NCBI GenBank assembly: GCA_028280265.1
Contig: JANQMD010000055.1
Coordinates: forward strand, 3,626 to 67,625
Length of the DNA: 64,000 nucleotides
Direction of reading: 5' to 3'
From: Flavobacteriaceae bacterium
GTDB lineage: Bacteria > Bacteroidota > Bacteroidia > Flavobacteriales > Flavobacteriaceae
In this document: one piece after another, positions 17,479-56,369 of the stretch
Numbering within the stretch: position 1 is the first letter of the stretch
Layout of the letters: each line of letters starts with the position of its first letter
Position numbers and translations under genes: made by a program
Notes under the pieces: model-generated
The model's database searches: none
The model's input: the letters and a program-made list of their open reading frames with translations, nothing else
Told to the model about the DNA's origin: nothing

Positions 17479-17569
17479 TTTGAATGATTTAGTTTTAACA
17501 AATAAATCAGGTAAAATTTTTGTACAAAATATTTAGATTAGTACACAAACCTTTATCCCGAAAGTTTTT

Positions 17570-17755
17570 ACTCATGATTTATGGCAGGTCTCCTGACTTG
17601 TTTTAAACTATTGAACCTTCCCAACATTATGTCAGTGGTATTTGTAGTAATAGTCTCTCTTTTAAAAAGAGATGCCGAAATAAGTTCGGCATAAACTTAC
17701 AGTTGCGGGAACAGTCTTGGATTTGCACCAAATTCCCTTTTAATTCACAAACAAC
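17570..17755 (-). promoter_or_regulatory. cobalamin (B12) riboswitch in the btuB leader
   Basis: The minus strand reads AAAGGGAATTTGGTGCAAATCC, then GTTCCCGCAACTGTAA, then CCACTG...TTGGGAAGG, then the B12 box AGTCAGGAGACCTGCC (rc of 17583-17598). Ends are approximate. Confidence 0.9.
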
Positions 17756-17784
17756 GAAATTGATTGCGAAACCAAAAATCAGCA

Positions 17785-17814
17785 CAAATTTATAGTATTA
17801 TTATGTAATACAAA
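17785..17814 (-). promoter_or_regulatory. candidate Bacteroidota promoter (-33 TTTG / -7 TAAATTTG) driving riboswitch-btuB
   Basis: The minus strand reads gcTTTGtattacataataatactaTAAATTTGtgc. The -7 box is the rc of 17785-17792, the -33 TTTG is the rc of 17811-17814, and the spacer is 18 nt. It lies about 30 nt upstream of the riboswitch core. Confidence 0.5.
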
Positions 17815-47412: not shown

Positions 47413-48492
47413 TTGTACGCTGTTTTAGATATAGAAACAACTGGTGGTAAATACAATGAAGAAGGAATTACCGAGATTGCTATTTACAGATTTGATGGTG
47501 ACATGGTCACAGATCAATTCATAAGTTTAGTCAATCCAGAAAAACCCATTCAAGAATTTGTAGTTAAGCTTACTGGCATCAACAATAAAATGTTACGTAA
47601 CGCTCCAAAGTTTTTCGAAGTAGCAAAGCGAGTTATTGAAATCACAAAGGATTGTACTCTTATTGCTCACAATGCTGAATTTGATTCTAGAATCTTAGCT
47701 ACAGAATTTAAACGTCTTGGTTTTAACTATGAAATGAATTCAATCTGCACAGTTGAGCTAAGCAGAAAACTAATTCCTGATGAAGAATCGTACAGTTTAG
47801 GAAAACTATGTAAGTCACTTGGAATCCCTATGAGTAATCGTCATAGAGCCTCTGGTGATGCTTTGGCTACTGTTCAGCTTTTTAAATTACTTCTTGAAAA
47901 AGATAAGGATAAGGAGATTATAGAACAGACTATCAAATATTTTGATAATCGGACAGTCAAACAAAAAATCAATTCTATTGTAGAAAATCTTCCAGAAAAA
48001 TCTGGAGTCCTTTATGTTCATGATAAAGATGGTAAAGTCATCTACATTGGTCGAGGAAGAAACATAAAAACTGAGGTTAATAAATTGTTTGCAAAAGAAT
48101 CTAAAAGGGTTTTTAAAATTCAGGAAAGAGTTCAAAAAATTACATACAATCTAACAGGCAACGAATTATTGACAAGATTACGTTACAATTTAGATCTCGA
48201 TACCTTGCAACCAAAATACAACTTTGGCAAAAAAAGAAAAAAGGGGGTTGATGATTTTGCCCATGATGACTTTATTATTCAACATAAAGGAAGAGAAGTA
48301 GGAGAAAATGCTATTGTTTTAATTGAAGAAAACGAAGTAATTGGCTACGGTTTTACCAACCTTGCCTTTCAAGAAGCTGATTTAGAAATTTTAAAATCAA
48401 TTCTCAACCCTGTAGATAATAAACCTCTTGCCAAAATAATTGTTAAAAATTATCTCAAGAATAATTCTGTTACTAAAATCATCCGTTTTTAA
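47413..48492 (+). CDS. DEDDh 3'-5' exonuclease (DnaQ-like) fused to a GIY-YIG nuclease domain
   Basis: ExoI LDIETTG, ExoII AHNAEFDSRIL, ExoIII HRASGDALAT, then GIY-YIG GVLYVHDKDGKVIYIGRGRN. TTG start. Confidence 0.8.
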   Translation: MYAVLDIETTGGKYNEEGITEIAIYRFDGDMVTDQFISLVNPEKPIQEFVVKLTGINNKMLRNAPKFFEVAKRVIEITKDCTLIAHNAEFDSRILATEFKRLGFNYEMNSICTVELSRKLIPDEESYSLGKLCKSLGIPMSNRHRASGDALATVQLFKLLLEKDKDKEIIEQTIKYFDNRTVKQKINSIVENLPEKSGVLYVHDKDGKVIYIGRGRNIKTEVNKLFAKESKRVFKIQERVQKITYNLTGNELLTRLRYNLDLDTLQPKYNFGKKRKKGVDDFAHDDFIIQHKGREVGENAIVLIEENEVIGYGFTNLAFQEADLEILKSILNPVDNKPLAKIIVKNYLKNNSVTKIIRF

Positions 48493-48535
48493 TTCAGAAA
48501 TACTTTTCATAGATTGCGTATCTAAAATTATTACT

Positions 48536-50488
48536 ATGAAAAAATATATACTTACGCTTTTAGCAGTCTGTTTCTCATTTTCTTCTTTTTCTCAAAAAAA
48601 GAAAGTATTAAAACTAGGACAGACAACTCGACCAGAACTAGAAATGTCAATTTACCCAAAAGATTCTACAGCAAATGCTGTGGTATTATTTGAAGAGGCT
48701 TTCTGTTATGTTGATGAGAAAAGGAATTACAAGTTTACAACAGATCATTACTATAGAATAAAAATTCTTACCAAAGAAGGCAAAGAAAAAGCCAACATAT
48801 CTGTTGATTTGTATAAAAAAGAAGAGATTTTAGACATTAAAGCCTTCACCTACAATATAGAAAATGGAGCTATCACGAAGATTCCACTCACTAAAAAGGA
48901 TATTTTCACTAAAAAAGTATCTGATAAATACAGAACCGTTAGTTTTACTTTACCCAACATTAAAAAAGGATCTGTGATAGAATACAGCTATTCTATTACT
49001 TCTCCATACAATTCAATAGACAGCTGGTATTACCAATCAGATATACCAAAAATAGAAAGTTCTTTTTCCACACTATTATTAGCAAATTGGAGGTATAAAA
49101 AAAGAATGACAGGCTATTTAAAACTCAGTACAGCAGAAAATAAAATCAAGAAAAATTGTATGTATGTGGATGGCGCTGGACAAGGAGATTGCATTTCTTC
49201 TACCTTCATTATGAAAGATATTCCAACTTTTGAGGATGAAGATTATATGACTTCAAAAGAAAACTTTATTTCTAAGGTTTCATACGATTTAGAATCTTTT
49301 ACAAACATACGTGGGAGGACAAAGAAATATACAACGGATTGGAAAAAAGCTGAATTGACGTTAAAACGGAAATTCTTAAATAACCAGTCGGAAAAAAAAT
49401 CTTTTTTTAGGAGAAATTTACCAGAAAATGTCAATACCATATCGTTACCTCTTGAGAGAGCAAAGAAAATTTTCTCTTTTATCCAAGGACACTATACATG
49501 GAATCGAAAAAATTGGTATTCGAGTGAAATCAATATCAAAAGAGCCTTTAAAGAAAAGTCTGGTGGTATAGATGACATTAATATTTCGCTCTACAATGCG
49601 TTTAAATCATCTGGTATTGATGCCAATCTTGTCCTTGTTTCTACGAGAAGAAATGGAATTCCAACCAAGTTGTATCCAGTCATCACACAGTTTAATTATA
49701 TTCTTGTAAAAGCAACGATAGAAGGAAAAGAATACTTCCTAGATGCAAGTGACAAAAATTATAGTTTTGGATTTGTTCCTTTCAAATGCCTCAATGGAGA
49801 AGCAAGGGTATTGGATTTTGACAAAGGTGGTTATTGGCAAAAAATAAAAAGCGGACAAAAATCGCAAATCTCTTATCGTTTGAATGCCAAGTTAAATCAA
49901 GAGAATCAATTTGAGATTGATTTACATGTAAAAAGAAGTGGATATTATGCCTACAATCTTAGAAATGAGCTTGACAAGATCAGTCAAGACCAGTACATTG
50001 AAGAACTTGAGGAGGGTGATTTACAAGATGCAGAGGTAGAAGATTTCAATTTCGAAAATTTGGATAAACTAGATGATAATGTAATTCAAAAGATGAAAAT
50101 TTTAATTGATACTGAAATCGACAGTGGCAATGAAATTCTTTTCAACCCTATATTATTCATAAAAACAGTAAAAAATCCTTTTCAATCCAAAGACCGTCTT
50201 TTCCCTATTGATTATGGCTACAAGAGAAAGTATACTTATAAATACTCGTTTCAAATTCCTGAAGGATTTGAACTAAAAAATCTACCTGAGAATAATGCCA
50301 AAAAGCTTCCTGCTGGAGATGCTTTCTATATTTACAGAGTATGGCAAAAGGGAGATAAACTAAATGTTTATATAAAATTCCAAACTTCTAAAAGTGTTAT
50401 AAGTGGTACTCAGTATTTTTATTTGAAAGAGTTGTATAAATCTATGATACAAAGTGAAAAAAGCATGATCAAATTGGTTAAAAAATAA
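48536..50488 (+). CDS. exported DUF3857 / transglutaminase-like / DUF3858-type protein (probable pseudo-enzyme)
   Basis: Signal peptide ...FSFSSFS|QK. The central region GGIDDINISLYNAFKSSGIDANLVLVSTR...NYILVKATIEGKEYFLDASD follows the transglutaminase-core pattern but lacks the Cys and His. The start is moved to ATG 48536. Confidence 0.6.
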   Translation: MKKYILTLLAVCFSFSSFSQKKKVLKLGQTTRPELEMSIYPKDSTANAVVLFEEAFCYVDEKRNYKFTTDHYYRIKILTKEGKEKANISVDLYKKEEILDIKAFTYNIENGAITKIPLTKKDIFTKKVSDKYRTVSFTLPNIKKGSVIEYSYSITSPYNSIDSWYYQSDIPKIESSFSTLLLANWRYKKRMTGYLKLSTAENKIKKNCMYVDGAGQGDCISSTFIMKDIPTFEDEDYMTSKENFISKVSYDLESFTNIRGRTKKYTTDWKKAELTLKRKFLNNQSEKKSFFRRNLPENVNTISLPLERAKKIFSFIQGHYTWNRKNWYSSEINIKRAFKEKSGGIDDINISLYNAFKSSGIDANLVLVSTRRNGIPTKLYPVITQFNYILVKATIEGKEYFLDASDKNYSFGFVPFKCLNGEARVLDFDKGGYWQKIKSGQKSQISYRLNAKLNQENQFEIDLHVKRSGYYAYNLRNELDKISQDQYIEELEEGDLQDAEVEDFNFENLDKLDDNVIQKMKILIDTEIDSGNEILFNPILFIKTVKNPFQSKDRLFPIDYGYKRKYTYKYSFQIPEGFELKNLPENNAKKLPAGDAFYIYRVWQKGDKLNVYIKFQTSKSVISGTQYFYLKELYKSMIQSEKSMIKLVKK

Positions 50489-50514: not shown

Positions 50515-50553
50515 AAAAAAATAAATACGGCAAATGCCGTATTTATTTTTTTT
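50515..50553 (+). terminator. strong rho-independent terminator
   Basis: ATAAATACGGC (50521-50531), loop AAAT, GCCGTATTTAT (50536-50546), followed by T7. An A run precedes it. Confidence 0.88.
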
Positions 50554-50597: not shown

Positions 50598-52079
50598 ATG
50601 AAAAGATTTGTATTTCTATTAATCTGCCTCCTAATTACTATTCTGTCATTTGGTCAAGATGACGAATACGGAACTGGTTTGGACTTTAGCCAAGAGAAGT
50701 ACGAATCGGTACCGATGTCTGCCCCTATCTTAACAAGAAGCTACACAAATTTACCCAAGCGTTTTAGTTTAAAGCCTTATGCTCCTACTCCTGGTGATCA
50801 AGGCAGGCAACCCTCTTGTGTTGGCTGGGCCAGTGGCTACGGAGCAAGAACCATTGCTTATGCCGTTAAAAATAACTGGAAATTCAATAAGGTAAAGATC
50901 AATCAAAACGCTTTTTCTCCTTCATTCATTTATAATCAAATTAAGTCATACGGTGATAATAATTGCACACGAGGATCTTTTATCGCCGATGCTATGAAGT
51001 TGATGAATACCTCGGGCATTTTGAAAAAGAGAGAATTCGCTTACAATCCTAATAGCTGTACCTCTAAGCCCAATAGTTTTGGACTACAAAAAGCGAGAAA
51101 TAATAAGATTATCACTTTTGAGAGGTTAGCAAGGTGGGACAACCCGTATAACTTGGTTGGAAAAGTAAAAAAGGCAATTGCCAACAAAAATCCAGTTGTA
51201 GTTGGAATGTTCAAGTATGGTAAACTAGGTGGACTTGGCGAATTGTGGTCACCTCCTACTGTACCTTCAGGTGGTGGACATGCTATGGTTGTGGTGGGTT
51301 ATGACGATACAAAACATGGAGGAGCTTTTGAAATTATGAACTCATGGGGTACTCGATTTAGAAATGGTGGTTTTTTCTGGGTACGATACAACGACTTTAA
51401 AAAGTACATTAAAACCGCTTATGTGCTGGTCGACAATGCCAACTCTATTCCCAATAAAATTGACAATAACACCAATGTTACCAATAAATACAAGTATAAC
51501 AAGCTGTCTGGTGAAATTGCTTTGCGATTAAGTAGTGGCAGAGACATGGTTCCTAACCTTTCGAGTGAAGCAAAAAGAAATTTTAATATTGTAAAAGCAG
51601 GTAATAGCAAACGAATAAAAGCTACGTATACAATTAACAAAGCTTATTCTTCTGGAACTCAGTTTAGAATTTACTTAAAAAGCAAACAAAGAGGATATGT
51701 GTATTTAATTGGTTATGGAGGGTCCGACAAATCTGTTAACAAATTATATCCATTCGATAATTTTAGTCCTTTCTTTAACTACTCCAACAGTGAGATTGCC
51801 ATTCCAAACGAGGAGTACTTCATAGAATTTGACAGCAAGCCTGGACAAGATATCCTTTGTGTATTGTTTAGCAAACAGAGATTGGACATCAATAATATTG
51901 TCAACAAAGCTCGATATAGCGGCGGCGATTTTGTTGCCAATATTAAAAAGGATTTACAGACTAAAATGTTTAAAGGAAGTGAACTCACATTTAGCAATAA
52001 CAAGATTGCTTTCAGTGCTTCAAGCAGTAATTCTGCCTCTAAAGTAGTACCTATTTTTATTTCAATGAACCATCAATAA
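50598..52079 (+). CDS. exported papain-family (C1) cysteine peptidase with C-terminal DUF4384-like domain
   Basis: Signal peptide MKRFVFLLICLLITILSFG|Q. Catalytic set: Gln in DQGRQPSC, Cys in SCVGWASGYG, His in GGGHAMVVVGYDD, Asn-Ser-Trp in IMNSWGTRF. The C-terminal ~130 aa (RIYLKSKQRGYVYLIGYGGSDKSVNKLYP...DILCVLFS) is DUF4384-like. Confidence 0.8.
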   Translation: MKRFVFLLICLLITILSFGQDDEYGTGLDFSQEKYESVPMSAPILTRSYTNLPKRFSLKPYAPTPGDQGRQPSCVGWASGYGARTIAYAVKNNWKFNKVKINQNAFSPSFIYNQIKSYGDNNCTRGSFIADAMKLMNTSGILKKREFAYNPNSCTSKPNSFGLQKARNNKIITFERLARWDNPYNLVGKVKKAIANKNPVVVGMFKYGKLGGLGELWSPPTVPSGGGHAMVVVGYDDTKHGGAFEIMNSWGTRFRNGGFFWVRYNDFKKYIKTAYVLVDNANSIPNKIDNNTNVTNKYKYNKLSGEIALRLSSGRDMVPNLSSEAKRNFNIVKAGNSKRIKATYTINKAYSSGTQFRIYLKSKQRGYVYLIGYGGSDKSVNKLYPFDNFSPFFNYSNSEIAIPNEEYFIEFDSKPGQDILCVLFSKQRLDINNIVNKARYSGGDFVANIKKDLQTKMFKGSELTFSNNKIAFSASSSNSASKVVPIFISMNHQ

Positions 52080-52085
52080 TAGATC

Positions 52086-55000
52086 ATGAAACGATACCTC
52101 TCTCTATTTATCCTTTTCAGCTATACATTTATAAACAGTTCTTTTTCTCAAAATTACCTATATCAAGAAGAGTTCAACAGTCAAGGGGCATGGACAAAAG
52201 GAAATAATGAACTCCGAGAACTCTACGTCTCTAATGGAAAATATTATTTCGAGCATAAAAAAACACAAGGTTCTAGGGATGTCACCACAAGAACATTCTA
52301 CATAAACTTTTCCAAAGATTTTGAAATAGAAACATCTATCCAGAAAATTTCAGGAGTACAAGACTATGGGGTTTCATTTTTATACGATTATAAGGATAGC
52401 GATAATTATACGGAGTTTGGTTATACTGCTACGGGATATTACCGTGTTGCAAGGTCTGCGAATGGATCATATAGCAGCATCAAAAGTTGGGCAACAACCT
52501 CTTACCTCAAAAAAGGGAACTACGCAACAAATAAACTTAAAATCAAAAAGTCTGGAAATCGAATTACTTATTACATCAATGGTTCTTATGTATATGGAAT
52601 GGACTTTAAAAAGTTCAAAGGAAGTAAAATAGGATTCCGTTTGTATAGAAACCAGAAAGTAGCAATAGATTACATTCGAGTAAAATATATAAGTGGTTCA
52701 AATACAAATACAGTCACCAACACCACTTCTAAAACGATTCTCTTTGATGGGTTTAACAATAATAACAATAAATGGTCCCAAAGTAATACTTCGAGTGTAA
52801 GGCTCGCTGTAGAAGGAGGAGATTACCTTATAGATCATAAAAGAGATAAAGGAGGTTGGTCTTCTACCATTAAAAAATACATCAACTCTTCCCATAACTT
52901 TAGAATTACTGCTCAAATAAAGAAAAACAGTGGAATTCAAGACAATGGATTTGGAGTTACCTTTGGTAAAAAAGATAACGACAACCAAAACCACTTTTTA
53001 ATTTCTGGTGATGGTGCTTATAAAATTGTTCAGTACAAGAATGCTACCCGTAAATACATCAAAGATTGGACGTCCTCGACTCACATTAAAAAAGGAAATG
53101 GACAATACAATTATTTAAAAGTTCAAAAAGTTGGATCTGCCTATAAGTTTTACATCAATAGCAAGCTTGTACACACAAGTTACTCTATAAAATTATATGG
53201 AGATCGAGTTGGGTTTTCCGTATTTGACAAGCAGTCTATTAAGGTAGGGTACTTAAGTATGATGTATGAAGATGGAGGCACTAATACCAATACAAACATC
53301 GCCAATACCAATTCTCATGTAAGTAGAGAAACCATCATTTTTGATGGTTATACCGATAATAGAAACGATTGGTCTATTTCAAAGAACGAGAAAGTAGATT
53401 TAGATATTCGAAATGGCAACTACTACTTCGATCACAAAAGAGCTCGTGGAGGGTGGTCTTCTACCATGGTGAAATACATAGATACTTCTAGAGATTTTAA
53501 AATTCTTGCTGATATAAAAAAAGAGAGCGGAATCCTTAATAACGGATACGGTATCACCTTTGGCAGAAAAGATTCTAACAATCAGAACCTCTTCTATGTC
53601 AATGGGAATGGCTCCTACTCCATCAATAAAATGAAGGATGGAAAAGACAATTTCAAGAGAGAGTGGGCCTCTTCCAGTGCTATTAGAAAAGGAAATGGTG
53701 GATATAACATACTAAAAGTAGTAAAAGTTGGAAGTAAATTAGAATACTACATCAACAATACAAAGGTATACACAGATTACAATCCTGAATTCTTTGGAGA
53801 TCGCTTGGGATATATTCTATATGACAAGCAAAAAATATCCATTGCATATCTGAGTGTAGGATACTTAGATAAGAAAAAATCTGTTGTGAGAAACAATGAC
53901 AATACAACGGATAATATTAGCAATTACACATACAGCAATGCTGGATTTCATTTCAGTGATCAATTCACCAACAATACAAATGGCTGGTATACCGGTAGTG
54001 ATGAGAAAAGAGATTTTAGTATTAAAAACGGAAAGTATTATTTAAAACACAAACGCAACCAAAAAGGTTGGTCAGCATATCAAGAGCAACCTATTGATAC
54101 CAATCGTGACTTTGAAATTGAAACAAAAATTGATAAAATTAGCGGTATAAACAACTATGGGTATGGTCTCATTTTTGGAAAAAAAGGAGATAGCGACTTT
54201 CGCTTTTATATTTCATCCAATGGTTATTACAAAGTTGCCAGAATGGTCAACAATAATGAGCAGGTCATTAAAAAATGGACCACAACAAGCTATGTAAATA
54301 CTGGTAATAAAAAGTCGAATGTTCTTAAGGTTAAAAAAGAAAAAGATTATTATAAGTTCTATATCAATGGAAATTATGTCTATCAAACCGATTTCGAAAA
54401 TTTCTACGGCAATGACCTCGGTTTTGTTGTGTATAATAATCAAGAAGTGGCAGTCGATTACGTTCGAGTGAAATATTTGAGCTCTAACACTAGTGTTGTT
54501 GCTAAAAATAAAGTGTTGAGACTTCCTCTAAATGAGAGTTTCTCTTCCAACATCAATAATTGGTCGAATGATAATTTGAGCAACTATACCTCAGATGTAT
54601 CTGGCGGAAAACTCAACATTCACAGGAAAAAAGAGGGCGGTATTTTCATCAGCAAAGATGTCGATATAGATACCAATAAAGATTTCATCATCGAAACCTC
54701 TATTAGTCGTCAAAAGACAGGAGCATCTGGTTTGTATGGTTTTACTTTTGGCCGTAAAAATTCAAGCAACGAATTTACGTTCCTGATTAGCACCAATGGA
54801 AGCTATATGTTCAGAAAGTTTGATCACAACAAATACAATAAAATCATCCCCTTTACTTCCAACAGCGCAGTAAAAACAGGCATTGGTCAAGCCAATAAGA
54901 TTAAAATTGTAAAGTCTGGGAGCCTGCTTCGTTTTTATATCAACGGGCAGTATATGAATGAAGCTCCTTTTGAGAATTTCTTTGGCAATAAGCTAGGGTT

Positions 55001-56117
55001 TACTGCTTATCATGAGCAGAAAATTTCTGTTGATTACTTAAATATCAAATACCAAACTAGTAGTTACAACAATCCGCCTATTGTCGTAATTACAGAGCCT
55101 GATGTAGATTTAAAACGTGGATTTAAAATTGTGAAGACCAAGAAAATAAGAGTAAGCGGAAAGGCCGCTGATAAAGATGGAATTTATGAAGTCCTTATCA
55201 ATGGCGTTGATGCTACGGTAAACGAAGATGGGACTTTCTATGCAAATGTTCCTCTGAAAATTGGTAGCAATGAACTCATTGTGAAAGCTACTGATATCAA
55301 ACAAGCCTCTTCTACCAAGACTTTTAGAATCAAAAGAAAATCACCTGATGTAGATAAAACAGACGTTGTAGTTACGAAGGTAGATAAGAAGTTGGATGTT
55401 GGTTTCGGTAAGTATTATGCGCTTTTAATTGGAGTCAGTGATTACAATGATGCCAGTAATGTCCCAGATCTAGAAGGGCTGCCTACTAAAGATGCGAAAG
55501 ACTTGAAAGATGTTCTAGTGGAACAATACAGTTTTGAGGAAGAAAATATCGTCTTGCTAAACAACAGTCCTACCGAGAATCAAATATTGCGCGAATTTGT
55601 AAAATTGAAGAAAAAAATAACCAATAAAGACAATGTATTGATCTTTTATGCAGGTCATGGTATTTATGACGAAGCTACGGAAACCGGTAGTTGGCTACCA
55701 TCAGATGCAGATCCAGAATACGGGTTGAACATGATTAGCAATTCAACGATCAAAGATTACATCAAAGGAATCAATTCTAAACACACGCTTCTTATTTCGG
55801 ATGCTTGCTTTAGTGGTTCTATTTTCAAAACACGTTCTTACAAAGCAGCACCTAAGTCGATTACAAGAAAGTTTGAGTTGCCCAGTAGAAAAGCTATTAC
55901 AAGTGGTACACTTAAGACAGTTCCCAATAAGAGTGTGTTCTTAAAATACTTGATAAATCGCCTCAAAAACAATCAGGAAGCTTATCTAACCGCTCGAAAA
56001 ATATTTGATCGGATAGAAGAACCTGTGATGAACAATAGTAAAAACGTTCCTCAATACGGAACCATACAAGAAGTGGGTGACGAAGGGGGTGATTTTATCT
56101 TCATCAGAAAAGAATAA
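52086..56117 (+). CDS. exported multidomain protein: 5 tandem ~198-aa jelly-roll/lectin-like repeats, an Ig-like domain and a C-terminal caspase-like (peptidase C14) domain
   Basis: Signal peptide MKRYLSLFILFSYTFINSSFS|Q. Five repeats span 52149-55054, an Ig-like segment ~55075-55340, and a caspase domain ~55410-56114 with His in IFYAGHG and Cys in LLISDACFSG. Starts 6 nt after the C1 peptidase gene. Confidence 0.85.
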   Translation: MKRYLSLFILFSYTFINSSFSQNYLYQEEFNSQGAWTKGNNELRELYVSNGKYYFEHKKTQGSRDVTTRTFYINFSKDFEIETSIQKISGVQDYGVSFLYDYKDSDNYTEFGYTATGYYRVARSANGSYSSIKSWATTSYLKKGNYATNKLKIKKSGNRITYYINGSYVYGMDFKKFKGSKIGFRLYRNQKVAIDYIRVKYISGSNTNTVTNTTSKTILFDGFNNNNNKWSQSNTSSVRLAVEGGDYLIDHKRDKGGWSSTIKKYINSSHNFRITAQIKKNSGIQDNGFGVTFGKKDNDNQNHFLISGDGAYKIVQYKNATRKYIKDWTSSTHIKKGNGQYNYLKVQKVGSAYKFYINSKLVHTSYSIKLYGDRVGFSVFDKQSIKVGYLSMMYEDGGTNTNTNIANTNSHVSRETIIFDGYTDNRNDWSISKNEKVDLDIRNGNYYFDHKRARGGWSSTMVKYIDTSRDFKILADIKKESGILNNGYGITFGRKDSNNQNLFYVNGNGSYSINKMKDGKDNFKREWASSSAIRKGNGGYNILKVVKVGSKLEYYINNTKVYTDYNPEFFGDRLGYILYDKQKISIAYLSVGYLDKKKSVVRNNDNTTDNISNYTYSNAGFHFSDQFTNNTNGWYTGSDEKRDFSIKNGKYYLKHKRNQKGWSAYQEQPIDTNRDFEIETKIDKISGINNYGYGLIFGKKGDSDFRFYISSNGYYKVARMVNNNEQVIKKWTTTSYVNTGNKKSNVLKVKKEKDYYKFYINGNYVYQTDFENFYGNDLGFVVYNNQEVAVDYVRVKYLSSNTSVVAKNKVLRLPLNESFSSNINNWSNDNLSNYTSDVSGGKLNIHRKKEGGIFISKDVDIDTNKDFIIETSISRQKTGASGLYGFTFGRKNSSNEFTFLISTNGSYMFRKFDHNKYNKIIPFTSNSAVKTGIGQANKIKIVKSGSLLRFYINGQYMNEAPFENFFGNKLGFTAYHEQKISVDYLNIKYQTSSYNNPPIVVITEPDVDLKRGFKIVKTKKIRVSGKAADKDGIYEVLINGVDATVNEDGTFYANVPLKIGSNELIVKATDIKQASSTKTFRIKRKSPDVDKTDVVVTKVDKKLDVGFGKYYALLIGVSDYNDASNVPDLEGLPTKDAKDLKDVLVEQYSFEEENIVLLNNSPTENQILREFVKLKKKITNKDNVLIFYAGHGIYDEATETGSWLPSDADPEYGLNMISNSTIKDYIKGINSKHTLLISDACFSGSIFKTRSYKAAPKSITRKFELPSRKAITSGTLKTVPNKSVFLKYLINRLKNNQEAYLTARKIFDRIEEPVMNNSKNVPQYGTIQEVGDEGGDFIFIRKE
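52149..55054 (+). repeat. five in-frame tandem coding repeats (period 576-615 nt)
   Basis: The anchor Trp codon of each unit lies at 52191, 52773, 53370, 53985 and 54561. Every unit ends with a (V/L)x(V/I)(K/G)Y(I/L) strand. Units 1 and 4 resemble each other most, as do units 2 and 3. Confidence 0.9.
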
Positions 56118-56217
56118 AGAATTTTCCTGAAGTGAGCTTCCCTTGTGAAAAATTCTTAGAAATATCTGACTTGTTTCATTTTATCAATAAATCAACATAG
56201 AAATTCTATTATTTAGA

Positions 56218-56319
56218 TCCCGAAACAATGCTTCGACACTTCGGTTACTCTCAGCGCAAGCCAGCTCAGCATGACAGTTCGGGGTGACATTTTCAGAGGT
56301 AATCAAGGCCTAGCCTTGA
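56218..56319. repeat. GC-enriched structured intergenic element
   Basis: CCCGAA (56219-56224) pairs with TTCGGG (56278-56283), enclosing direct repeats (CTTCG x2, CTCAGC x2) and GCTCAGCATGACA. A 7-bp hairpin TCAAGGC-cta-GCCTTGA follows at 56303-56319. This composition stands out from the AT-rich flanks. Confidence 0.4.
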
Positions 56320-56369
56320 TGAATTCTTTTCGATTAATTTAAGTATATTGTGTTCAAAATGATTCTTTC

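Follow-up and report, generated by a model that had tools for sequence, protein, structure and literature searches.

Prokaryotic caspase homologues of known function are, to our knowledge, all cytoplasmic, and we know of no role assigned to the many that carry signal peptides. Here we analyse a pair of adjacent genes in a 64,000-nucleotide (nt) stretch, hereafter the window, of contig JANQMD010000055.1 from a Flavobacteriaceae bacterium (assembly GCA_028280265.1). Gene 1 (50598..52079, + strand) encodes an exported C1 papain-like peptidase of 493 amino acids (aa) with a DUF4384 C-terminal region. Gene 2 (52086..56117, + strand) encodes a 1343-aa protein composed of a signal peptide, five ConA/CBM66-like repeats, an Ig domain and a C14 caspase. 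Literature searches found no published description of the pair or of the operon, in agreement with the initial annotation, a reading of the sequence by a model without database searches, which knew of no function for such a module. The component families (C1, DUF4384, C14 and the ConA/CBM66-like fold) are known; what seems not to have been described before is the operon, its constant Ig-caspase with exchangeable heads and its distribution over the phylum. That prokaryotic caspase homologues may be exported is an idea already in print and not a new one: the N-terminal helices of such proteins were described in 2012 as 'likely signal peptides' and an extracellular role was discussed (PMC3501461), and in 2016 the metacaspases of Bacteroidetes were speculated to help degrade phytoplankton polymers (PMC4933709).

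The gene 2 protein shares with the prokaryotic orthocaspases and metacaspase-like C14B peptidases the p20-type fold and the His/Cys dyad, and the closest solved sequence relative of its caspase is Arabidopsis metacaspase-4 (6W8S). Domains flanking p20 are the rule in prokaryotes (PMC3501461, PMC6426788). However, unlike C14B peptidases, gene 2 carries a Sec signal peptide, five ConA/CBM66-like modules and a Glucodextran_B Ig domain, and it sits in an operon with a papain-like peptidase. The recurrence of DUF4384 with caspase-like proteases, stated in the initial annotation, is borne out: this domain accompanies cyanobacterial orthocaspases (PMC7475262) and occupies the C-terminal end of alphaproteobacterial trypsin-like/p20/DUF4384 fusions (Klemencic et al. 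2019, PMC6426788). Like the pair, these fusions bring together p20, DUF4384 and a second, apparently active protease of another clan. They do so on one polypeptide, with a serine protease and a pseudo-caspase (QC dyad, Gln replacing the catalytic His), whereas the pair consists of two genes, with a C1 thiol protease, an intact dyad and DUF4384 on the non-caspase partner. The presence of the same three elements on one alphaproteobacterial polypeptide is a fusion-type argument for cooperation between gene 1 and the caspase.

The type III-E CRISPR Craspase provides a precedent for a caspase-like protease whose partner or substrate bears DUF4384: in it the caspase-like Csx29 cleaves Csx30, and DUF4384 is the C-terminal domain of some Csx30 proteins. 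Unlike the pair, Craspase is cytoplasmic and RNA-guided, relies on a TPR-CHAT protease and involves neither a C1 peptidase nor signal peptides. In the periplasmic protease-adaptor pairs Prc-NlpI and CtpA-LbcA of Proteobacteria, an envelope protease is steered to its substrates by a TPR-type binding module. These systems are analogous to the TPR-Ig-caspase variants described below for two related loci (L055 and L056), but their proteases belong to the unrelated S41 serine family, their adaptor is not a fused head but a lipoprotein of its own, and no second protease takes part.

The gene pair is a real unit that is inherited together. At 44 of the 45 distinct sites of gene 1 homologues, a signal-peptide caspase gene (or, at a contig end, a repeat-bearing N-terminus) directly follows. 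A scan of a genome collection with the single gene 2 protein yielded 5 loci, the breadth of the survey coming from a metagenome scan and from look-ups of exact proteins. The gene 1 homologue lies directly upstream of a repeat-caspase gene in L001, L002, L004 and L005, and the same adjacency is found in four more distinct assemblies (L006-L012). Retrieved with the C-terminal region of gene 1 only, 33 metagenome loci show the two genes adjoining in 32 cases, the 33rd contig being too short, and all 22 loci of sufficient extent have the caspase domain at their end. The intergenic gaps measure 3-8 nt in the loci with gene calls; in the window, on the + strand, the two reading frames lie 6 nt apart, as the initial annotation had noted. 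The pair is kept down to 34-38% identity (L049, L051, L055 and L056); it has at least five different genomic surroundings and spans three Bacteroidota classes: Flavobacteriia, Sphingobacteriia (Pedobacter heparinus) and Chitinophagia (Flavihumibacter). The reading proposed from the window, an autonomous pair of exported thiol proteases of two clans, is supported, and the pair is conserved and co-directional.

The usual gene order is an exonuclease gene, sometimes a DUF3857/transglutaminase-like gene, the pair, an ion-channel gene and miaA. Other flanks are hisS/folE and LuxC (L009) and ispG and DoxX/S66/metG (L051), with further sets in L055 and L056. In Polaribacter marinivivus (L002, 12009-19185), ~7 kb separate the caspase gene from the ion-channel gene, the two being adjacent elsewhere. 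The nearest relatives are 83-84% identical and include Pseudotenacibaculum haliotis, Polaribacter being more remote, which makes the host a marine flavobacterium of this family. Each of the two window proteins is the sole member of its 90%-identity cluster among 15 billion sequences.

Within this unit the gene 1 partner tracks the caspase and not the repeats, since the repeat-only protein of L003 has no gene 1 and L049 and L051, in which the array is cut to two repeats, keep it. The L003 protein, from a Tenacibaculum metagenome-assembled genome (7941-10457), is 838 aa long and consists of a signal peptide and repeats only, without Ig domain, caspase or C1 neighbour; the array is thus also found free-standing.

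More distant operons separate the constant from the variable parts. Searching with the remote gene 1 homologue of L051 returned C1-DUF4384 proteins of ~475 aa from Sphingobacteriia (Mucilaginibacter, Pedobacter, Solitalea and Daejeonella) and Chitinophagia (Flavihumibacter and Ferruginibacter). In Pedobacter heparinus (L055) the C1-DUF4384 gene is followed by genes for an AhpC/TSA-thioredoxin-Ig-C14 protein and a TPR-Ig-C14 protein. In Flavihumibacter (L056) it is followed by a gene for a TPR-Ig-C14 protein and then by one for a protein with Ig-C14 and no assigned head; a third Ig-containing protein, for which the precomputed annotation lists C14, runs past the end of the locus. The four complete caspase domains of these loci match the hidden Markov model (HMM) of the gene 2 family at 1e-75 to 1e-101 with intact dyads. 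All five caspase-gene products start with signal-peptide-like N-termini, and ConA-like repeats were found in none of them. The conserved core is C1-DUF4384 plus an Ig-caspase preceded by a variable head. As the same C1-DUF4384 gene also occurs where the heads are TPR or thioredoxin-like, constancy does not extend to the lectin-like array, which is the head used by marine Flavobacteriaceae. The initial annotation had read the array as an apparent sensor, possibly for glycans; given the exchange of heads in Pedobacter and Flavihumibacter, it is not a fixed glycan sensor but one of several interchangeable heads. One hint comes from the thioredoxin-like head of Pedobacter: in an oxidising compartment it may be important to keep the catalytic thiols reduced.

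Both of these loci carry tandem paralogous exported caspases after a single C1-DUF4384 gene (L055, 7449-11191; L056, 7524-13425). In L055 two more genes, coding for 392 and 262 aa without Pfam matches, lie downstream of the caspases. On plasmid pAB510d of Azospirillum sp. B510 (L058, 4759-9990), a 1743-aa exoprotein with an N-terminal two-partner-secretion (TPS) domain has at its C-terminus the same cassette of Glucodextran_B Ig and Peptidase_C14, the identity being 27% with 98% of the query covered. The Ig-caspase cassette is thus also exported by another secretion route, in Alphaproteobacteria.

Residues 119-267 of the gene 1 protein match Pfam Peptidase_C1 (PF00112) with 36.1 bits against a cut-off of 20.7. 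The catalytic domain extends over aa ~52-283 (50751..51446, +), as judged from Pfam, alignment with a solved relative and homologue conservation. Among solved proteins, gene 1 best matches the bacterial C1 protease 3OIS (E = 2.8e-11), which we take to be xylellain of Xylella fastidiosa, the search output naming only a 'Cysteine protease'. The DQGRQPSC, GGGHAMVVVGYDD and NSWG motifs of gene 1 align with the corresponding motifs of this protein (DQGR..SC, GGHA..VGYDD and NSWG). The catalytic residues Q68 (codon 50799-50801), C74 (50817-50819), H228 (51279-51281) and N248 (51339-51341), all on the + strand, are conserved in at least 97-98% of 120 gene 1 homologues. Two additional Cys residues, C122 and C153, are kept in at least 98% of homologues, which fits an oxidising compartment. 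Like 3OIS, gene 1 has a short N-terminal extension and no full I29 prodomain: Pfam gave no I29 propeptide match, and only a 27-aa extension (aa 20-47; 50655..50738, +) precedes the core. This extension ends at the near-invariant Arg47, which is followed by Ser in the motif P-x-L-T-R-S, is conserved in 97% of homologues, 5 residues ahead of the core start LPxx[FY]SLK. The extension may be a short pro-region that ends in a processing site.

Gene 1 goes beyond 3OIS in its signal peptide, its tie to a caspase gene and its ~190-aa DUF4384-containing C-terminal region (aa 301-493; 51498..52076, +). DUF4384 itself (PF14326) occupies aa 350-427 (nt 51645-51878) and scores 28.9 and 31.0 bits against a cut-off of 27, covering profile positions 2-80 of 81. 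Across the 120 homologues the mean column conservation of the DUF4384 region is 0.85-0.91, on a par with the catalytic core. An AlphaFold (AF2) model of residues 296-493, with a predicted local distance difference test (pLDDT) score of 80.9, shows an Ig-like beta-sandwich plus two helices.

The gene 2 protein ends in a Glucodextran_B-type Ig-like domain (aa 1015-1084; 55128..55337, +; Pfam 7.3e-10), which also precedes the caspase in L055, L056 and L058, and a C14 caspase/orthocaspase-like domain (aa 1111-1343; 55416..56114, +). When the last 250 aa are scanned alone, Peptidase_C14 (PF00656) scores 60.5 bits against a cut-off of 21.4; it was not reported in the Pfam scan of the whole protein. 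Many gene 2 homologues also lack PF00656 in precomputed annotation and carry Glucodextran_B only or nothing. A count of caspases taken from Pfam tables of whole proteins will come out too low for this clade. The YAGHG and SDACFSG motifs, which contain the catalytic H1191 (codon 55656-55658, +) and C1241 (55806-55808, +), align with the YSGHG and SDSCHSG motifs around the catalytic His and Cys of Arabidopsis metacaspase-4 and are found in every full-length gene 2 homologue among the 120 listed. In the sequence alignment, D1136 in the PTKDA loop and D1239 in SDAC, two residues ahead of the catalytic Cys, coincide with Asp95 and Asp211, the S1-pocket positions of the trypanosome metacaspase TbMC2 (PMC6426788). 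With Asp at both positions, the gene 2 caspase is predicted to cleave after Arg or Lys.

The initial annotation had read gene 1 as a C1 papain-like peptidase with a complete catalytic set and a DUF4384-like C-terminus, and gene 2 as five repeats and an Ig-like domain ahead of a caspase fold with an intact His/Cys dyad. These assignments stand, and the three families it expected (PF00112, PF14326 and PF00656) all exceed their cut-offs, the last on the isolated C-terminus.

The five repeats were missed by a self-BLAST of gene 2 and revealed by motif anchoring and MAFFT. They are ~190 aa long, mutually 32-43% identical and, within the family, belong to position-specific types whose commonest order is 1-2-3-4-5. 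Repeat 1 (aa 21-214; 52146..52727, +) is of type 1, which is nearly always first in the array; repeats 2 (aa 215-406; 52728..53303, +) and 3 (aa 414-605; 53325..53900, +) are of the internal types 2 and 3, which are gained or lost; repeat 4 (aa 618-809; 53937..54512, +) is of type 4 and was chosen for modelling; and repeat 5 (aa 810-1000; 54513..55085, +) is of type 5, which always adjoins the Ig domain. In the gene 2 family the copy number is 4 (37 proteins), 5 (72) or 6 (10) and shifts when the internal types 2 and 3 are lost or duplicated. Repeats 2 and 3 of the window share 164 nt (52833-52996 and 53430-53593) at 70% DNA identity. The other repeats have diverged at the DNA level, pointing to old duplications.

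The AF2 model of repeat 4 (pLDDT 94.6) is all-beta, a ConA-like beta-sandwich. Its top match in the Protein Data Bank (PDB) by Foldseek is CBM66 (4b1m; E = 5e-8, probability 1.00, TM scores given as up to 0.65 and as 0.65-0.76); the best matches also include binding domains of botulinum toxin, GH16 glucanases and a phage Dit carbohydrate-binding module. A sequence-profile search of the PDB likewise gave CBM66, as its sole match (E = 0.011). The closest known modules are the CBM66 of Bacillus subtilis levanase (4AZZ, 4B1L and 4B1M) and the Pfam family 3keto-disac_hyd (PF06439; formerly DUF1080). The window repeats differ from both in scoring below the Pfam cut-off (17.9 bits against 26.8 for PF06439, which more distant members of the repeat family do reach) and in forming ordered arrays of 2-6 position-specific types. 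The repeat family has 12,748 cluster representatives at E <= 1e-3. Among the best 148 representatives, ~40 carry C14, at either end of the protein, and 57 are repeat-only; the remainder carry TPR, WG repeats, OmpA, PD40, WD40, or a kinase plus FGE-sulfatase. Pfam scans of these best representatives revealed no glycoside hydrolase catalytic domain, and the repeats are fused to caspases, TPR, WD40 and OmpA and not to glycoside hydrolases, unlike CBM66. The term 'lectin-like' used in the initial annotation is right as a description of the modelled fold; sugar binding is putative.

A small residue followed by Gln at the cleavage junction is the Bacteroidota 'Q-rule' pattern for signal peptidase I substrates. 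Both window proteins show this junction, as read from the sequence: the signal peptide of gene 1 comprises aa 1-19 (50598..50654, +), with the junction between LSFG and QDDE, and that of gene 2 comprises aa 1-21 (52086..52148, +), with the junction between NSSFS and QNYLY. Q20 of gene 1 is conserved in 97% of homologues. An N-terminal Lys or Arg, a hydrophobic core and a small-residue-Gln junction are found in 115 of 118 gene 2 homologues and in ~105 of 118 gene 1 homologues, so that the signal peptides noted in the initial annotation prove to be family-wide features. Searches with NCBIfam, using whole proteins or isolated C-termini at E up to 10, detected no C-terminal domain (type A or B) of the type IX secretion system (T9SS). 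Neither junction has a lipobox Cys (SFG precedes the Gln in gene 1 and SFS in gene 2), C10 of the gene 1 leader lying within the hydrophobic core. Because T9SS C-terminal domain and lipobox are both absent, the two proteins most likely remain in the periplasm or envelope.

These observations lead us to propose, tentatively and as the reading we prefer, a cell-envelope protease system of Bacteroidota in which a variable head recruits the Ig-caspase and DUF4384 ties the C1 peptidase to it, the two acting on a shared target or in a maturation step. Both proteins would stay in the periplasm or envelope. The head would bring the caspase to its target, which would be glycan-bearing here and recognised through TPR or thioredoxin-like heads in the sister operons, and DUF4384 would dock the C1 peptidase onto the caspase. 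The C1 peptidase and the caspase would then act on the same target, or one would mature the other. The Arg47-Ser48 junction, together with the predicted basic preference of the caspase, suggests a specific maturation step in which the caspase would remove the 27-aa N-terminal extension of the C1 peptidase between these two residues. The initial annotation had suggested an extracytoplasmic, possibly glycan-triggered, proteolytic cascade. The exported pair is retained from that proposal, whereas a dedicated glycan trigger is weakened by the interchangeable heads; for this reason a target-recruiting head is the better reading, and the glycan-triggered cascade is speculative.

Several points weigh against the recruitment proposal. 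Close relatives mostly share a housekeeping synteny, so that the co-occurrence count in part reflects common descent. Distant repeat-caspases stand alone without a C1 neighbour (L013, L014/15 and L053), from which it follows that the caspase does not generally depend on a C1 partner; neither DUF4384-like nor C1-like genes were found beside the distant repeat-caspases and repeat proteins of L003 and L013-L015. Conversely, a protein of a Persicobacter replicon, 30% identical, has C1 and a sub-threshold DUF4384 (23.7 bits, cut-off 27) with no adjacent caspase. The DUF4384 score of gene 1 itself barely exceeds the Pfam cut-off, and no solved relative of this region was found, a PDB sequence-profile search being empty and the best Foldseek match having E = 0.037. 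R47 could be structural and not a cleavage site. Finally, docking by DUF4384 is suggested purely by domain co-occurrence, and periplasmic retention by missing sorting signals.

In L053 (2310-4847), an 845-aa Peptidase_M14 protein (carboxypeptidase) is encoded directly upstream of a three-repeat caspase, in the usual place of the C1 peptidase. DUF4384 was not detectable in this M14 protein.

An alternative to envelope recruitment is that the two proteins are nutrient-acquisition proteases, released or surface-exposed, which digest algal or particle-bound (glyco)proteins while the array anchors the caspase to polysaccharide-rich substrates. The five-repeat form is found in marine Flavobacteriaceae (Polaribacter, Pseudotenacibaculum and Tenacibaculum-like bacteria) and on many metagenome contigs of the TARA and North Sea type, the repeat fold is CBM66/GH16-like, and degradation of phytoplankton polymers is the role speculated for Bacteroidetes metacaspases (PMC4933709). 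However, neither protein bears the T9SS C-terminal domain or lipobox, and the called neighbours include no SusC/SusD-like or glycoside hydrolase genes, the pair being flanked by housekeeping genes. The best representatives of the repeat family likewise lack glycoside hydrolase catalytic domains in the Pfam scans, and the operon is present in the non-marine genera Pedobacter, Mucilaginibacter and Flavihumibacter with TPR or thioredoxin-like heads. We consider a nutritional role unlikely.

An extracytoplasmic role in conflict, surveillance or self-destruction is distinctly unlikely. The heads would sense an invader or envelope damage and the caspase would activate the papain-like peptidase as executioner; or the proteins would be antagonistic effectors directed against neighbours. 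A variable head on a constant effector and tandem caspases (two in L055, three in L056) resemble the architecture of immune sensors, the Ig-caspase cassette ends a TPS exoprotein in Azospirillum, and DUF4384 is the C-terminal domain of some Csx30 substrates of Craspase. The best NCBIfam match of the caspase, the EACC1-associated type (NF047832; 4e-19), points the same way, as does a match to the generic 'caspase' model of PADLOC-DB 2.0 (7e-15), but the NCBIfam score of 69 bits is far under the cut-off of 140. Membership in known anti-phage defence systems was rejected: beyond this generic match of gene 2, no PADLOC model matches gene 1, gene 2 or the gene upstream of them. The stable housekeeping neighbourhood, the apparently vertical inheritance across genera without signs of mobile elements, and the absence of a visible NTPase, immunity-like or toxin-like partner gene also speak against such a role, and a plasmid search gave only distant, partial relatives.

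A periplasmic ligand-gated caspase is a related idea that we regard as highly doubtful. Here the swappable heads would respond to a specific signal in the envelope, for instance a glycan that is foreign or damaged, a protein or a change in redox state, and the Ig-caspase would activate the papain-like executioner via DUF4384. If true, the sensor-caspase-effector logic of gasdermin and Craspase-type immunity, which is cytoplasmic, would have a counterpart outside the cytoplasm. That the two proteases are functionally independent and neighbours only through inherited synteny is very improbable: most close relatives do share the exonuclease/pair/ion-channel/miaA order, with or without the transglutaminase-like gene, and distant repeat-caspases lack a C1 partner, but the adjacency is kept in at least five unrelated flank contexts, down to 34-38% identity and across three classes, outlasts full replacement of the N-terminal head of the caspase and comes with very short intergenic gaps, and direct fusions of DUF4384 to caspase domains exist in other lineages.

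Around the pair, the window has a G+C content of ~34%, and the composition shows no break at the locus. Upstream, an intrinsic-terminator-like hairpin (50515..50552, +) with a 17-pair stem, a 4-nt loop and a T run ends the preceding gene and insulates the pair, in line with the strong terminator reported there by the initial annotation. This preceding gene (48440-50488, +) encodes a protein with a signal peptide, DUF3857, a weak transglutaminase-core match and a weak DUF3858 match, and would add a third thiol-enzyme-type fold in a row. It was rejected as a third core member: the DUF3857/transglutaminase-like gene adjoins the pair in only ~21 of 45 listed loci, being duplicated in L001, and in the window the terminator lies between.

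Downstream of gene 2, the gap measures 252 nt (56118-56369), compared with only ~50 nt in Pseudotenacibaculum haliotis. The GC-rich 'structured element' described there in the initial annotation did not survive closer inspection. Its folding energy is ordinary (z = -1.6 relative to shuffled sequence), and segment 56216-56290 matches no Rfam family, is single-copy and is absent from all fetched related loci. The segment was therefore dropped as a part of the module and may be a small insertion of obscure origin. Only a hairpin at 56302..56320 (+), with an 8-pair stem including 4 G-C pairs and a T-rich tail, resembles a terminator in this gap; it is weaker than the upstream hairpin. Elsewhere in the window lie a bacterial RNase P class A RNA (1982-2286, - strand; 212 bits) and a cobalamin riboswitch (17566-17791, - strand; 102.6 bits).

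The locus provides a concrete and widely conserved handle on the signal-peptide-bearing prokaryotic caspase homologues. It is a two-gene, sometimes three- or four-gene, operon of cultivable Bacteroidota (Polaribacter, Pedobacter heparinus and Mucilaginibacter). Its active sites are intact, its Ig-caspase cassette and papain-DUF4384 partner are fixed, and its heads can be exchanged. It offers a first testable role for DUF4384, as a caspase-partnering module, and its repeat belongs to a large ConA/CBM66-like family that, among the best-scoring members, is fused to caspases and not to glycoside hydrolases. If the two proteases act in sequence, the operon would encode a protease cascade in the bacterial envelope; if they do not, it would still represent a new envelope proteolysis system in an ecologically dominant phylum.

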